A stretch of 40,562 nucleotides of DNA from a virus (lineage: Duplodnaviria; Heunggongvirae; Uroviricota; Caudoviricetes): IMG/VR virus record IMGVR_UViG_3300042402_002792. One strand, 5' to 3'. The notes below the pieces were generated by a model. The model was given only the letters and a program-made list of their open reading frames with translations, was not told where the DNA came from and ran no database searches. This document shows positions 6,449 through 23,704 of the stretch, piece by piece (within the stretch, counting starts at the first letter, position 1; each line of letters starts with the position of its first letter). The position numbers and the translations under genes were made by a program.

Positions 6449-6809
6449 GTTCTATCTCCTCGTTAATAACCTGAAGCTTACGCATCAAAGGCCAAACTTG
6501 TTTCTTAGCGTCTTCTATAGCCATTGAGATTTGGTCCTCGGCTGTCCCGTCAGTAAGGACATCGCGGGCATCTTCGTATAAGCATCCGCCCAAGTAGGCG
6601 CTACCGAGCTCGTGACCTTCAACCAGGACCCGGACACGCAGCATGAACCAATCCAGCTTGCCGTAGTCAATGTCCTTGCAGATCTGTTCAATATCGTGGC
6701 ACTCGTCGTCGAAACAATCACGGACATGGATTTCCTCATAGGTCTTGTCTACAATAACCTCAAAGCCTTCGCGCTCATAGCGAGCCAATTCATCGTACCA
6801 GCGTGTCAT
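6435..6809 (-). CDS. acidic hypothetical protein
   Basis: AAGGA RBS; 124-aa ORF. Confidence 0.8.
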   Translation of the reverse strand: MTRWYDELARYEREGFEVIVDKTYEEIHVRDCFDDECHDIEQICKDIDYGKLDWFMLRVRVLVEGHELGSAYLGGCLYEDARDVLTDGTAEDQISMAIEDAKKQVWPLMRKLQVINEEIERETV

Positions 6810-6817
6810 ATCAGTCC

Positions 6818-6964
6818 TTATCGTGTTGCAGGTTTAACAATGATGTCGCAGGGGTAGCCGTCGTGTTCGATCAGCCCTTTGCGTACATACCACAGCTCAC
6901 AGTCTGCGTCATAGAATACAGTGTCAATGACTCGTCCGTTGCGGATAACGTCCCATGCTTTCAT
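6818..6964 (-). CDS. small hypothetical protein, 48 aa (not in ORF track)
   Basis: MKAWDVIRNGRVIDTVFYDADCELWYVRKGLIEHDGYPCDIIVKPATR; AAGGAG RBS. Confidence 0.7.
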   Translation of the reverse strand: MKAWDVIRNGRVIDTVFYDADCELWYVRKGLIEHDGYPCDIIVKPATR

Positions 6965-6973
6965 AAGTGCTCC

Positions 6974-7204
6974 TTAGCAATCTGCGTCAAAAGATTCCCA
7001 TTCCTGGGCTTCGTCGGGCTGACCGTCCCAATCTGGATCTTCAACTAGATAGTCCTCGTCCTCTTCGTCCAGAATGTCGTTAGCACGGCACATGTCTTTA
7101 ACGTCATCTTCGCTCATGTAAGCCAGTGCCATCTCTGCCACAGCTTCTGCAGAGATAAGTCCTTCGTCCATCATCTCCAACAGCTTCGTAGTGTACTTAC
7201 GCAT
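6974..7204 (-). CDS. very acidic small protein
   Basis: DEEDEDYLVEDPDWDGQPDEAQEWESFDAD tail; AAGGAGCGAAC RBS. Confidence 0.8.
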   Translation of the reverse strand: MRKYTTKLLEMMDEGLISAEAVAEMALAYMSEDDVKDMCRANDILDEEDEDYLVEDPDWDGQPDEAQEWESFDADC

Positions 7205-17968: not shown

Positions 17969-18006
17969 ACTATTATAATACAGTCTATTCGAAATAAAAT
18001 CAACCG

Positions 18007-18237
18007 TTATGGCTGTTTTCCACTCCAGCGAAGAATAAACCAGTCTCTTTGGCTTTCTTTTCGAAAACTGAACAGTCGTCCAGTCATACGCATACCAGTA
18101 CCAAACTCACTGTTGCACCAATCTTCCATTTCTTTGAGTTCTTCATCGGACACTTTGGTCACATCCTCTCCGTCGTCATCTTCTACCAAAACACCAGGCA
18201 AACGGAACATGCCAACTTCACAAGTTTTCAATATCAT
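18007..18237 (-). CDS. LRW-family small protein
   Basis: MEDWC...FSFRKESQRDWFILRWS. Confidence 0.75.
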   Translation of the reverse strand: MILKTCEVGMFRLPGVLVEDDDGEDVTKVSDEELKEMEDWCNSEFGTGMRMTGRLFSFRKESQRDWFILRWSGKQP

Positions 18238-18570
18238 TTAAGAACTCCACCTTAATAGGAACATGGTAATATGCTTGTCTTCTTTGAACAACCACATGTC
18301 AAAACTCAATCGTTTGGCTGAAGGAATGTTAGTCCAAATCCAATTCTGTACTTCATCCATATCACCATCACGTAGCCCTCGTTCGAACCCTCGTGGCCCT
18401 ACTTCTGTGTAGGCTTTGAGTTTGCGTCCCGGCAATCGTAGCCAAGATATCTTAACCGGTACATCCATATTGCTGTTCCATATGTTCATCCACTTCTGAA
18501 GTTCGCTCTTGCCAACCCCACGCCCTGTGAGCTGAACCAAGCCTTGCCCTTTGTATTGATAGTTACTCAT
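18238..18570 (-). CDS. LRW-family small protein
   Basis: VQNWI...WLFKEDKHITMFLLRWS. Confidence 0.75.
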   Translation of the reverse strand: MSNYQYKGQGLVQLTGRGVGKSELQKWMNIWNSNMDVPVKISWLRLPGRKLKAYTEVGPRGFERGLRDGDMDEVQNWIWTNIPSAKRLSFDMWLFKEDKHITMFLLRWSS

Positions 18571-18838
18571 GGTATGTGATTAAATCAAATGCTGTTGCAT
18601 ACTGTGTTTCAGGTTCCATATGGAAGCCAGTGCCCCATACTACCCAAACTTTACGTTTATAAACCTTCTTCCACCAAATGCCTCTGCCAGTGACAGTCTT
18701 AACAGGCCACCAAGCAAACACTTCGTGCCATGGATAACAGTCTGCTCCGTTGGTTATAATAGTGTATTCCATTTTGCGTTTCTTATAGCCTTGCACGTCA
18801 ATGTTCCATCCTATACTCCGGCCCCAAACTATTTTCAT
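18563..18838 (-). CDS. FAWxPV-family small protein
   Basis: PWHEVFAWWPVKT..GR.IW.K.VY.R; ATGA overlap. Confidence 0.7.
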   Translation of the reverse strand: MKIVWGRSIGWNIDVQGYKKRKMEYTIITNGADCYPWHEVFAWWPVKTVTGRGIWWKKVYKRKVWVVWGTGFHMEPETQYATAFDLITYHE

Positions 18839-19152
18839 TTGAAACTTTCTTCTAACCAATCTTTGGCAAAGCTATAGGTCTTGTTCTCTATTATATACTC
18901 ACTGAAGGCAATTCTAAAGAGGTATGCTGCCTTTCGGCTTTCAAACTGTATCAAAGGTAACACTATTCGGCGATCTGCATCACTCTTTAGATGATTCTCT
19001 TGATAGTTATGTATAATATGGAATCGTTCAAACGGACCGTTGGCTGGATAGTTCTTGCACCATTCAATCATATCACTGTTGGTTGTCTGCATGAGAAAAC
19101 GATAGGTAAAGTCTGGACGATTGTTGCCGCCGCTGGTAAAGTAGTATTCCAT
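18835..19152 (-). CDS. LRW-family-like small protein
   Basis: MIEWC...IQFESRKAAYLFRIAF. Confidence 0.7.
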   Translation of the reverse strand: MEYYFTSGGNNRPDFTYRFLMQTTNSDMIEWCKNYPANGPFERFHIIHNYQENHLKSDADRRIVLPLIQFESRKAAYLFRIAFSEYIIENKTYSFAKDWLEESFK

Positions 19153-19153
19153 A

Positions 19154-19342
19154 TCAACTCTTTATAACATCAAAGACAGTGCCATACTCGTAATGAGACC
19201 AATCATCAAAGTCAACATAGGTGTTGATGCAACGACGGTAGACAGTCTTTAACCAAACACGACGACCGTGTATCTTTACTGGACGCCAGGCAAACCATTG
19301 CTGCCAGGGCATTGTTTCTATTTTTCTAGCAACAAGAGTCAT
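19154..19342 (-). CDS. FAWxPV-family small protein
   Basis: PWQQWFAWRPVKIHGRRVWLKTVYRR. Confidence 0.75.
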   Translation of the reverse strand: MTLVARKIETMPWQQWFAWRPVKIHGRRVWLKTVYRRCINTYVDFDDWSHYEYGTVFDVIKS

Positions 19343-19593
19343 CGTGCCCACCTCAATGCAAACCAAAATGCTTCTTTGTCATCTACAAACTCAATGAACT
19401 TTTCTTTTAAGTATCCTGGACTGTGATAATAAGGATATTTGCAGTTTTCTTCCAACCACGCATCAACTTTGTGATCTAAATAACTGCGTTGGTATTGTGC
19501 CTGTACACCGTCTACAGTGTCGGCATACTTTACCTTGTGTAACACAGGCACACGAACACCGAGATATTTGCTTTCTTTATAAGTTATGGTCAT
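19339..19593 (-). CDS. LRW-family small protein
   Basis: VDAWLEENC...IEFVDDKEAFWFALRWA. Confidence 0.8.
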   Translation of the reverse strand: MTITYKESKYLGVRVPVLHKVKYADTVDGVQAQYQRSYLDHKVDAWLEENCKYPYYHSPGYLKEKFIEFVDDKEAFWFALRWAR

Positions 19594-19775
19594 TGCGCCC
19601 ACCTTAGTGCAAACCACATAGCGTCTCGTTCATCGCTGAAAAAGTAATCAACCTGTGTAGGATCATAGGTGTTATACCCGTCACAATGCAGATCATTGGT
19701 GACGTAACTGGGACAGTTAGCCTTAGCCCATTCTAGTGGAGTCCACAAGGGATCGTAGGGTATTGTGACAGTCAT
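19590..19775 (-). CDS. LRW-family small protein
   Basis: LEWAKANC...YFFSDERDAMWFALRWA. Confidence 0.8.
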   Translation of the reverse strand: MTVTIPYDPLWTPLEWAKANCPSYVTNDLHCDGYNTYDPTQVDYFFSDERDAMWFALRWAQ

Positions 19776-20167
19776 GACGAATATTTTAGTGCTATCATCA
19801 TAGCATCTCTTTCATTGTTGGTTGCAACAAACACTTGTTCTTGATCGTATCGCATATCGCTAAGATGAAACTTACCGTCCCACGGATCTCTATAGCCACG
19901 AGCAAAGTGATAGACTGCACAGTTATCCAAATCTCTGTTAGGATGCATGTACTGCCGAAAGTCCTTGCACGGAACCCAACCAAACGGTTCATTGATATCA
20001 AACATCCGTGTAGTCACAGGAATGATGTATCTGAAGTGCATGAACATATTCTCAATGGTACCAGCACGACTAACCACCGTTCCATCATACCAGTTGCGAA
20101 AATCTCGTGTTGTCTTATCTTGTCCAGTGCTCCACGTTAGATAACGATCTTTAATCCATTCAATCAT
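19772..20167 (-). CDS. LRW-family-like protein
   Basis: C-terminal NNERDAMMIALKY. Confidence 0.75.
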   Translation of the reverse strand: MIEWIKDRYLTWSTGQDKTTRDFRNWYDGTVVSRAGTIENMFMHFRYIIPVTTRMFDINEPFGWVPCKDFRQYMHPNRDLDNCAVYHFARGYRDPWDGKFHLSDMRYDQEQVFVATNNERDAMMIALKYSS

Positions 20168-20370
20168 GCCCACCTCAATGCAAACCAGTTGGCATCACGT
20201 TGATTCTTAAAATAGAACTCTGTATAGTTGTATTGATAAACAACATGCCATCGTCCTCTGAATGTGCCAAACTGTTCACCTAGCCACAGTTCAACAGGTG
20301 TGATGTCTTTAGTGTTATCTGAGTTTACTCTAACACTACAGGGCCATAGTTCTTTCTTTAATATTCTCAT
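20164..20370 (-). CDS. LRW-family small protein
   Basis: VELWLGEQFG...FYFKNQRDANWFALRWA. Confidence 0.8.
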   Translation of the reverse strand: MRILKKELWPCSVRVNSDNTKDITPVELWLGEQFGTFRGRWHVVYQYNYTEFYFKNQRDANWFALRWA

Positions 20371-20603
20371 GACCACCTCAATACAAACATCATAAACTTT
20401 TTGTCGTCTAGGACTTCGTAGTATTCAATTTTACCACGATTCAATATTAATCTTACACCATACCTGGTTTCTAAAAAGTGTAAATGGCTATCAGTGCTGG
20501 CATGTCCGGTGACGAATCTTGCTTCGGGCGGAAGATGCATTGGTGGCTTTTCTTTACACCACTGTTTGCTAACCATTTTTGAAAACTCTTCTGTAGCTAT
20601 CAT
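20367..20603 (-). CDS. LRW-family small protein
   Basis: LDDKKFMMFVLRWS. Confidence 0.75.
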   Translation of the reverse strand: MIATEEFSKMVSKQWCKEKPPMHLPPEARFVTGHASTDSHLHFLETRYGVRLILNRGKIEYYEVLDDKKFMMFVLRWS

Positions 20604-20785
20604 GCCCACCTCAAAATAAACAGCATTTTGATTTTTTCATTGACTAATTGTATTACCATTCCGTGTCTTTCGCAACCGTGATCTTCTAGCCATTTGTCAA
20701 TTACTTGTTCGTTATCGGCATAAAACATATAATCTTCAATAAGGGCAGTAGTACTATGGAATATAAATTTATTCTTTACGACCAT
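20600..20785 (-). CDS. LRW-family small protein
   Basis: IDKWLEDHG...VNEKIKMLFILRWA. Confidence 0.75.
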   Translation of the reverse strand: MVVKNKFIFHSTTALIEDYMFYADNEQVIDKWLEDHGCERHGMVIQLVNEKIKMLFILRWA

Positions 20786-20812
20786 CTCAATACAAACCGA
20801 TCAACTGTTCGT

Positions 20813-20932
20813 TCATAAAAACCACTCCTTGATGTGCCAGCCAACAATGCAGACAATATTAAACCATAAAGCAAACAACACCGTGTAGAGATATATCATA
20901 GCCCAGCGTCCTGCTCGTTCTCCTTCGGTCAT
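20813..20932 (-). CDS. small membrane protein, 39 aa (not in ORF track)
   Basis: MTEGERAGRWAMIYLYTVLFALWFNIVCIVGWHIKEWFL; GGAGG RBS, ATGA overlap. Confidence 0.6.
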   Translation of the reverse strand: MTEGERAGRWAMIYLYTVLFALWFNIVCIVGWHIKEWFL

Positions 20933-21246
20933 TGTGCCTCCACTGTCATCGGGCATCGACCATCGACTGTGGCTCCAAAACCCAAAGGACAAGCGATCTT
21001 GGTTCTATCCGCATTGCACTTGGGGCAGACCCAACCTTTGGGTTCTTCAACTCCGAAATGTTGTTTAATCTGTTCACCAATCATTCGGCCTGACCATCCC
21101 GGATGATCCTCACAAGTCTGCAACATTTCTGCCACAATCAACTCGGCGAACTTTTCTAACGTGTCTTCCCACTTAGCACGATCTTTACCTAGACCATAGA
21201 CATCTAAATGGCTTGTTCTTGCAAACTCTCTAATTCGTTCATTCAT
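20929..21246 (-). CDS. hypothetical protein (MNERI...EKFAELIV family) with C-terminal CxxC
   Basis: MNERIREFA, LEKFAELIV, IKQHFGVEE, CPKC. Confidence 0.75.
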   Translation of the reverse strand: MNERIREFARTSHLDVYGLGKDRAKWEDTLEKFAELIVAEMLQTCEDHPGWSGRMIGEQIKQHFGVEEPKGWVCPKCNADRTKIACPLGFGATVDGRCPMTVEAQ

Positions 21247-21647
21247 CTTGCTAATTCCAATAACATTTGATATTGTTCCCAAACTTTCTTTACCGCAGGA
21301 TTTCGATGTCTAATTTTATCGTCTTCTATTTCCTGCAAATACTTTTGTTTATAATACTGTGCTTCTTGTTCCATTTTACCTAACCAACGATCACGTTCGA
21401 CTAAGTCTCTAAACTTATCCTGCGGTATATAAATCTCTATCATAGGCTCTCGTTCTATTTCTTGATGAAAGGGTATGTTAGCACCGTCCTTTAACCAATC
21501 TGTATATCTTACAGGCACAGGTCTAGCATATACTTTATGCCTACTCAGTTCTGCTTGTGCTTGATACTTCTTACAAAATAAATTAACTTCGTCTTCTGCG
21601 CTTAAAGTATTTTGTGAATAATCATATTGTTGATTATAATAATTCAT
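21243..21647 (-). CDS. hypothetical protein
   Basis: C-terminal NPAVKKVWEQYQMLLEL; ATGA overlaps. Confidence 0.75.
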   Translation of the reverse strand: MNYYNQQYDYSQNTLSAEDEVNLFCKKYQAQAELSRHKVYARPVPVRYTDWLKDGANIPFHQEIEREPMIEIYIPQDKFRDLVERDRWLGKMEQEAQYYKQKYLQEIEDDKIRHRNPAVKKVWEQYQMLLELAR

Positions 21648-21907
21648 TGTTCTACATCCTGAGCCCATAATCTTACTGCTACTATAGCATCAACCATACC
21701 TTGTTCGTAGCCTTCCCAGTAAGGTCCGTACATGGCTTCATCTTTAGCATCTCGCCATCCTCTTAGATCTTTTTCAATATCTTCTAACATTAGTCTAATG
21801 AACCGTTCTAATGCAGGACGATCCAAATGTGCTAGATACAGTCGACCCCCTGCACGAGATATAATTTCATCTAATTTGTCGTTAAAGTTTACGTTTTTAT
21901 AGTCCAT
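21644..21907 (-). CDS. hypothetical protein
   Basis: ORF in overlapping operon. Confidence 0.7.
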   Translation of the reverse strand: MDYKNVNFNDKLDEIISRAGGRLYLAHLDRPALERFIRLMLEDIEKDLRGWRDAKDEAMYGPYWEGYEQGMVDAIVAVRLWAQDVEQ

Positions 21908-22193
21908 TTAACCACCTTAACTTAAACCACATGGCATCTCGGTCTTTTTCAAACATCCACACTAGACCGTGTGTCCATATAGCTCCTTTGATATTGTCTT
22001 CTACCCATGTATCAATATGATAGCACTGTTCCCAATCCATCGGAGTTAGGATAACTTCATGCCATCCTAGTTCTTGATACATAGACCTCATAAGCTGAGC
22101 ATCTATTTCAGATGCTAGTACTTTTGATTGCTCTGCAATAATTTGTTCTTGTAGTTCACCGCTACGATCAGTTAACAAACGTTTCTTTTGCAT
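21897..22193 (-). CDS. LRW-family small protein
   Basis: IDTWVEDNI...WMFEKDRDAMWFKLRW. Confidence 0.8.
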   Translation of the reverse strand: MQKKRLLTDRSGELQEQIIAEQSKVLASEIDAQLMRSMYQELGWHEVILTPMDWEQCYHIDTWVEDNIKGAIWTHGLVWMFEKDRDAMWFKLRWLNGL

Positions 22194-22198
22194 GTTGT

Positions 22199-22420
22199 TT
22201 ACTCAGCATATTTTATAGCAAACAATGTAGCATACTTTTCTGCATAAAATGTAAAGATAGTATGCCGTTCTCTAGTTGTTCCTGCAAAGGTATCGTAAAG
22301 TTCAGGATAGTGAGCAAAGTCAAAATCTTTACCCTGCCACAACCCCTGACTACGAAGTTGATACACCATTTCCATAATTTCAACTACATGACGTTGTTTT
22401 ACAATTACTTCTACAGCCAT
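22199..22420 (-). CDS. LRW-family-like small protein
   Basis: FTFYAEKYATLFAIKY. Confidence 0.75.
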   Translation of the reverse strand: MAVEVIVKQRHVVEIMEMVYQLRSQGLWQGKDFDFAHYPELYDTFAGTTRERHTIFTFYAEKYATLFAIKYAE

Positions 22421-22731
22421 TTTAATTTAAACCAATTCGCTTCTTTTTCGGTACGCAGATAAATCTTAAAGTTATCAAAATTAGTATGCCAACACCATTT
22501 GTCATTTTTGCCAACTGCACTGTCGTCTAGCATTAACCAAAAGTCTAATTCACAACTAGGTCCGTAGGTTTCCCAACACCATTCTCTAATTTGATTAAGA
22601 TCGTTTGCTTTTTGTATTGCAGACTGCCGTCCGTAGTTGATATTAACTGCTTTTTCTATAATAACAATGTACTGCCAAAACTGATTGCCGTTATGCCGCT
22701 TGTCAGTTTTCTTAAGTGTAAATCTCATCAT
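22411..22731 (-). CDS. LRW-family small protein
   Basis: IREWCWETYG...IYLRTEKEANWFKLKW. Confidence 0.8.
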   Translation of the reverse strand: MMRFTLKKTDKRHNGNQFWQYIVIIEKAVNINYGRQSAIQKANDLNQIREWCWETYGPSCELDFWLMLDDSAVGKNDKWCWHTNFDNFKIYLRTEKEANWFKLKWL

Positions 22732-23630: not shown

Positions 23631-23704
23631 ATTATAATACAATGTGGTTAATAAGTCAATATCTTTTGGCAGAGGTTGACAAATATGTACAATACCTATA
23701 TAAT
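23631..23704. promoter_or_regulatory. back-to-back divergent sigma70 promoters at the strand switch
   Basis: Minus: TTGACT-17-TATAAT (23631-23659); plus: TTGACA-17-TATAAT (23676-23704). Confidence 0.85.

Follow-up and report, generated by a model that had tools for sequence, protein, structure and literature searches.

Integron arrays consist of promoterless single-gene cassettes that lie in one orientation behind one promoter. T4-type phages carry mobile regulatory cassettes built on promoter-early stem-loops (PeSLs) in their hyperplastic regions (Arbiol et al. 2010, PMC2839356; Comeau et al. 2014, PMC4122927). On the translational side, intragenic Shine-Dalgarno (SD) sequences at ATGA or TGATG overlaps aid termination-reinitiation, and their removal lowered reinitiation in four of five E. 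coli gene pairs (Huber et al. 2019, PMC6728339). Here we describe an array that combines known intragenic-SD coupling and PeSL-type shuffling in a different form. It lies on the minus strand of a 40,562-nucleotide (nt) stretch of viral DNA, IMG/VR record IMGVR_UViG_3300042402_002792, which is referred to as the window, and is made of small genes whose products share a C-terminal tail with the motif Leu-Arg-Trp (LRW). We consider it likely that the LRW end codons are spelled by the needs of the next gene and that the units are swapped at SD-ATG(A) junctions in a hyper-variable, early-type operon.

Like the described cases of intragenic-SD coupling, the array has co-directional genes that form −4 overlaps or lie a few nt apart, and the upstream gene holds the SD in its 3′ end; it differs in that the SD coincides with the LRW signature of a large paralogue family and recurs junction after junction, and in that an alternative spelling, xGA-TGG, gives the start codon instead. 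With the PeSLs it shares a short repeated expression signal that flanks small non-essential open reading frames (ORFs), and close relatives have their indel or replacement breakpoints within that signal. However, PeSLs are intergenic, transcriptional elements of a promoter and a terminator, whereas the array repeat lies in coding sequence and would act at the level of translation; since the array junctions carry no promoter-terminator composite, they are not PeSLs. As in integrons, the cassette content of the array varies between close relatives, but no integrase or attC-like sites were seen in the array (ten proteins scanned), and the joints are microhomologies in coding sequence.

Arg codon choice tracks the start of the next gene

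The array (window 18007-22731, minus strand) comprises 11 small family genes of 61–131 amino acids (aa) and one 12-codon remnant, with seven unrelated non-family small genes scattered among them. The shared tail has the consensus E-K/R-D-A-x-W-F-x-L-R-W followed by 0–6 residues, three of the 12 family gene ends are LK(W/Y) variants, and protein alignment gave an identity of the paralogues to the first member of only 12–31%. Between 17600 and 23800 we counted 18 promoter-like sites (17.2 expected, so not above chance) and six terminator-like sites (3.5 expected), and neither kind recurs at the junctions. With one strong promoter-like site upstream, none above chance inside and a terminator-like hairpin at the end, the region reads as one operon, with the following features.

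23631..23659, minus: sigma-70-like promoter, TTGACT-17-TATAAT, 11/12, at the head of the gene block containing the array
22411..22731, minus: family gene, 106 aa, end WFKLKWL; AAA-TGG contains the ATG of the next gene (22420-22418)
22199..22420, minus: family gene, 73 aa, end LFAIKYAE; no SD-like tail; next ATG 5 nt past the stop
21897..22193, minus: family gene, 98 aa, end WFKLRWLNGL; TTA-AGG-TGG 4 nt ahead of the ATG of the 87-aa gene
20813..21907, minus: four non-family genes (87 aa, 141 aa, 105 aa and a 47-aa membrane protein)
20776..20811, minus: 12-codon family-gene remnant (ERTVDRFVLRWS); TTG-AGA-TGG yields the ATG of the next gene (20785); left insertion scar
20600..20785, minus: family gene, 61 aa, end LFILRWA; TTG-AGG-TGG-GCA-TGA, ATGA overlap
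20367..20603, minus: family gene, 78 aa, end MFVLRWS; TTG-AGG-TGG-TCA-TGA, ATGA overlap
20164..20370, minus: family gene, 68 aa, end WFALRWA; TTG-AGG-TGG-GCA-TGA; exact copy of a 21-nt repeat at 20167-20187
19772..20167, minus: family gene, 131 aa, end MIALKYSS; ATGA overlap, no SD-like sequence (duplex −0.3 kcal/mol)
19590..19775, minus: family gene, 61 aa, end WFALRWAQ; CTA-AGG-TGG-GCG-CAA-TGA
19339..19593, minus: family gene, 84 aa, end WFALRWAR; TTG-AGG-TGG-GCA-CGA-TGA; exact copy of the 21-nt repeat at 19345-19365
18563..19342, minus: three non-family genes within the insertion (62, 105 and 91 aa)
18238..18570, minus: family gene, 110 aa, end MFLLRWSS; TTA-AGG-TGG-AGT-TCT-TAA, then directly ATG; right insertion end
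18238..20811, minus: insertion block of about 2.57 kb, ten genes, bounded by SD+ATGA junctions
18007..18237, minus: last family gene, 76 aa, end WFILRWSGKQP; Arg codon CGC; no coupled gene after it
18001..18015, minus: terminator-like hairpin and T-run that overlap the last gene's stop codon

At seven array junctions, (G/A)AGGTGG stands 2–9 nt ahead of the next ATG. AGGTGG is combined with an ATGA stop/start overlap at 19339, 19590, 20164, 20367, and 20600; at 18238 stop and start form TAA-ATG downstream of AGGTGGAG, and the junction at 21897 reads AGGTGGTTAAATG (AGG-TGG-TTA-AAT-G). An ATGA overlap occurs at 19772 as well, and longer overlaps are present at 21897, 22411, and 20776. At two junctions the next start lies within the codons themselves, as AAA-TGG at 22420 and as AGA-TGG at 20785, and the AAA-TGG of the 106-aa gene with its embedded start is kept in the orthologues of four related loci (L001, L010, L015, and L017). 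An initial annotation of the window had reported the coding of LRW as TTG/TTA/CTA-AGG-TGG, the junctions formed by it and the two ATGs made by A+TGG; all of these were recovered at the same positions on the minus strand.

GAGGTG is the exact complement of the 16S anti-SD sequence. Other genes in the window have ordinary AAGGAG-type SDs 5–8 nt before their ATG, from which we infer a canonical anti-SD, and the aligned spacing of the LRW sites matches theirs. For a canonical anti-SD, from which that of the host's 16S may differ, the predicted duplex was −10.7 kcal/mol for TTGAGGTGG and −2.4 kcal/mol for its CGT synonym, and the seven (G/A)AGGTGG junctions spanned −7.7 to −10.7 kcal/mol. The LRW bases thus placed very probably double as the ribosome-binding site of the next gene, and the motif would work as an SD with translational coupling.

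We then compared the Arg codon of the motif with Arg codons elsewhere. In the window, it was AGG at seven of nine LRW ends but at only 26 of the 617 Arg codons outside the motif (4.2%; binomial p = 7.9e-9), and AGG made up 33 of the 626 Arg codons overall. The two ends with another codon are the remnant at 20776, where AGA creates the next ATG, and the last gene of the operon, where CGC has no coupled follower. Starting from homologues of the 98-aa member, we reached 24 metagenome loci (L001–L024) with 58 unique family gene ends. AGG was used at 25 of these, and in 23 the start followed 2–9 nt after the Trp codon (22 ATG and one GTG at an overlapping stop); of the other two, one had no downstream start that we found, and one was a window end with an in-frame TAA-ATG at +9. 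AGA was used at five ends, four of which had the ORF-opening ATG embedded in AG-ATG-G. CGC, CGT, and CGA were confined to the orthologues of the operon-terminal gene, among which they vary freely, and one CGG-TGG-AGT-CATG end uses the TGGAG that comes after. The preceding Leu codon varied among these loci (TTA, TTG, CTA, CTG, CTT, ATG, and ATA), indicating that synonymous sites are otherwise scrambled.

An unbiased scan of viral contigs for the pattern D-A-x-W-F-x-L-R-W, with any Arg codon allowed, yielded 107 unique ends with a stop within eight codons. AGG accounted for 54 of them (50%; background 10.9%), and an ORF-opening ATG lay 2–10 nt further on in 47 of the 54. AGA or CGA was found at 41 ends, 33 of which had the ORF-opening ATG embedded, and CGC or CGT at eight (7.5%, compared with a background of 42%). 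The third base of the Leu codon was G at 47 of the 54 ends with AGG compared with 16 of the 53 without it (p = 1.4e-9); a G-ending Leu codon followed by AGG extends the site to GAGGTGG. This association between codon and start position indicates that the position of the next start determines how the motif is spelled. The initial annotation had singled out AGG as a codon that is rare and yet enriched at this Arg, and random codon choice is refuted in the window, in 13 related metagenome loci and among the 107 ends.

Two other explanations of the spelling bear on these counts. If AGG-TGG and the DNA repeat were merely leftovers of recent tandem duplication, with no role in translation, one would expect tandem paralogues and an occasional pair with an exact 21-mer, and both are present. 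However, at 12–31% protein identity and with a scrambled Leu codon, the Arg codon (AGG, xGA, or CGY) still tracks the next start, and in orthologues of the terminal gene the codon varies between CGC, CGT, and CGA. Common descent as the only cause is contradicted by the codon-to-start-position association, and we regard it as highly improbable. Equally slight is the probability that AGGTGG was selected for a reason other than initiation, such as an SD-like pause before termination or an mRNA structure, as AGG is used when the start is 2–10 nt downstream and gives way to other codons at embedded or distant starts, and the aligned spacing is the same as that of ordinary SDs in the window.

Gene order is shuffled among relatives, with breakpoints at family junctions

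Gene-order maps of 13 representative loci revealed the family genes in many orders, and the orthologue of the 98-aa gene has eight different downstream neighbours in eight related phages. The block 18238-20811 (ten genes) is absent from six contigs that are 97–99% identical to the window (L002–L007), and both breakpoints are at SD+ATGA junctions. In L003, the end of the membrane-protein gene, ...AAG-GAG-TGG-TTT-TTA-TGA, runs directly into the 76-aa gene; in the window, where this end forms an ATGA overlap, that ATGA leads into the remnant tail, nine more genes and then ...AAGGTGGAGTTCTTAA-ATGA. The block is also carried by L145–L149, and the insert-bearing form is found on 13 other contigs, indicating that both forms circulate. 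An identical copy of the 61-aa protein encoded at 19590..19775 is likewise present on 13 contigs.

Smaller differences were found in other pairs. L015 and L017 differ by exactly one family gene, which lies between two AGGTGG-N-ATGA junctions; relative to the window, L001 has three additional genes in the LRW junction that follows the 98-aa gene; and L060 and L095 differ by exactly one family gene. L077 and L079, which are about 98% identical, differ by a two-gene and a three-gene cassette. These are flanked by perfect copies, 25 nt long for the two-gene and 17 nt for the three-gene cassette, of ...TATTGAGGTGGTCATGA..., and the shorter genome retains one copy. The comparison of relatives that the initial annotation had called for thus revealed whole-gene indels ending at the motif in each of these pairs, window/L003 included.

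The gene-by-gene cassette pattern resembles that of integron arrays, as would be expected if a dedicated mobility system, either an integrase of the integron type with its attC sites or a homing endonuclease, moved the cassettes. However, Pfam and PHROGs scans of ten array proteins, which cover part of the genome only, revealed no integrase or nuclease domain, in agreement with the earlier description of a cassette array without an integrase, and the junctions are 10–25 nt of coding sequence rather than attC-like structured sites. We therefore give such a system very little probability.

Three further observations were made at the junctions. In L077 (700-2260) and L079 (10400-12600, minus strand), at least seven consecutive family genes are almost all joined by TTGAGGTGGTCATGA, and the array of this contig family is purer than that of the window. 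At the insertion scar of the window (20789-20818, minus strand), a nine-codon mini-ORF, MNEQLIGLY, begins at the ATGA that ends the membrane-protein gene, and its stop TGA lies 1 nt ahead of the ATG of the 61-aa gene; the mini-ORF bridges the scar, so that the chain of stop/start hand-overs is unbroken there. Comparison of L074 (11380-11640) with L039 (3170-3310) revealed a 120-nt deletion between two copies of TTGAT(T)GG, a natural variant in which the C-terminal domain of a family gene and the SD are removed and the downstream ATG is left without an SD.

Weighing of the proposed mechanism

In the mechanism that we propose, the operon would run on the minus strand from the promoter-like site at about 23.65 kb to the terminator-like site at about 18.0 kb. 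Since neighbouring genes touch or overlap, the last codons of each gene would form the translation-initiation region of the next, for which selection would have fixed a fitting synonymous spelling in one of three modes. In mode (i), (T/C)TG-AGG-TGG would supply GAGGTGG when the next ATG is 2–10 nt on, usually in an ATGA overlap. In mode (ii), AGA-TGG, CGA-TGG, or AAA-TGG would be used when the next ATG is embedded, and initiation there would be SD-less termination-reinitiation. In mode (iii), an ordinary CGY codon would serve when nothing is coupled, or when a following TGG-AG or TGG-GGA supplies the SD. Each gene would thereby bring the start signal for its follower, and any unit could stand behind any other. 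The array would then be a clean natural instance of dual coding, in which the three codons of a conserved motif take three predictable spellings according to the needs of the neighbouring gene; it would also give a simple rule for start annotation in dense phage micro-gene arrays and a testable account of how accessory arrays are reshuffled without loss of expression.

Several observations weigh against this reading. No SD-like tail is found at the family junctions 19772 and 22199, and the embedded-start junctions also lack an SD, hence an SD is not obligatory. Non-family genes, too, show an excess of AGG among their six final codons (20% vs 8.7%), indicating that the codon effect is general and becomes extreme and repeated in the LRW family. 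The orthologues in the codon counts are not statistically independent, and the gene calls are crude. The DNA repeat adds little of its own: the exact 21-nt copies at 19345-19365 and 20167-20187 form, with degenerate copies, the repeat families D1/D2 (6–7 copies), but the repeat is mostly a by-product of the conserved peptide and SD-driven codon choice, as the Leu codon is not constant and the exact 21-mer barely exceeds what the shared heptapeptide would lead one to expect. As for recombination, the window insertion and its counterpart share only the ATGA and an imperfect SD (AAGGAGTGG vs AAGGTGGAG), and the microhomology between L060 and L095 is only the ATGA. L002 has an in-frame 267-nt deletion in the 141-aa gene between two copies of the 8-nt TATTATAA (window 21357-21623 vs L002:6553-6570), which is microhomology-mediated and away from the LRW motif. 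The 105-aa gene at window 20929-21246 is a mosaic among 99%-identical phages, with conserved ends (..KFAELIV and EHFGVEE) and a core in three unrelated versions (L002, L004, and L006, around 6663-7154); its 36-aa zinc-ribbon-like tail (window ~20934-21042) is present only in the window and L003. Six more indels lie outside family junctions.

A rough estimate puts the chance of identical spelling in one of three WFALRWA pairs at a few percent, presuming that the shared WFALRWA, AGG and a G-ending Leu codon had already been selected. The repeat and its degenerate copies, noted in the initial annotation, were found again in a repeat search, and the exact 21-mer was rejected as an independent DNA element, being unproven in that role. 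The ORF at 20776-20874 was likewise not accepted as a gene, since it runs across the membrane-protein gene in a different frame and resembles the family in its last 12 codons only.

The cassette events and the indels elsewhere indicate that microhomology recombination is generally active in the phages, and they raise the question of whether the junctions are preferred at all. Illegitimate recombination might strike anywhere, with selection keeping only the joints at gene boundaries, so that LRW-SD-ATGA would not be a preferred crossover site. Some cassette events do share only 4–8 nt (the ATGA in L060 vs L095; the ATGA and an imperfect SD in the window vs L003), and microhomology deletions and other indels occur at unrelated sites of the same loci. 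In contrast, the perfect 25- and 17-nt flanks in L077/L079, with one copy left, are the footprint of direct-repeat recombination, and we find survivor bias as the sole cause rather unlikely. Under the reading that units are exchanged at the junctions, the family junction offers a recurrent and at times long stretch of homology, joints made there stay expressible, and the junction repeat itself may serve as the substrate of recombination.

The initial annotation had described each gene end as a self-contained unit of coupling and recombination. The association of codon and start and the junction breakpoints support this reading, although the repeat is mostly a by-product of the peptide, and indels occur elsewhere too. 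Nor does every gene carry a coupling tail, as was claimed: seven junctions have the SD, 19772 and 22199 have no SD-like tail, and 20776-20811 is a remnant rather than a gene. A broader proposal, which we advance only tentatively and to which we give somewhat less than even credence, is that the LRW tail is a portable in-coding module throughout the family, acting both as translational coupler and as recombination joint and helping to hold the peptide motif in place. If this dual role were true, it would explain the near-constant position of the C-terminal domain and the long, fast-reshuffled tandem arrays in large freshwater phages, and the LRW tail would be the translational counterpart of the T4 PeSLs.

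The LRW protein family and its source phage

A profile built from 47 tails detected the domain at E <= 1e-3 in 1857 clusters among 1.84 billion representatives, a lower bound, with clusters taken at 50% identity. Among the 150 matches listed, the domain lies at the C-terminus or a few residues from it, with a few duplicated, fused or extended exceptions, and nearly all are proteins of 58–160 aa. P0078 has a tandemly duplicated tail, and in P0086 and P0199 two full domains are fused; such proteins would be the expected product of slippage or stop loss between adjacent cassettes. In the AF2 model of the 98-aa member (pLDDT 87), a long N-terminal helix is followed by a beta-alpha-beta-beta-alpha fold, and the motif forms the last helix. 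Pfam gave no match above cut-off and PHROGs none below E = 0.017 for the ten array proteins, and a Foldseek search with the same model returned nothing at E <= 0.001. VIA-align reached a best Z of 5.7, with generic ferredoxin-like, ACT and RRM domains, from which no function can be proposed, and a literature search for the LRW motif in phage proteins found nothing. The family is thus very large and unnamed; its rapid turnover suggests an accessory role and a part in phage-host interaction.

The relatives of the array come from lake metagenomes, and the source is, judging from sequence, an uncultured large freshwater phage. A contig of 363,992 bp (JGI and NCBI) carries an array whose genes are laid out in the same way, indicating that the phage is probably a jumbo phage. 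The deposited phage records include no close relative: the region had no megablast match in 50,697 of them, and the neighbouring 832-aa protein had only a weak cyanophage match by tblastn. A search of viral contigs with this protein revealed no related loci. The 832-aa gene is on the plus strand and is separated from the minus-strand block of small genes by two back-to-back near-consensus sigma-70 promoters at 23631-23704 (plus strand 12/12, minus strand 11/12).

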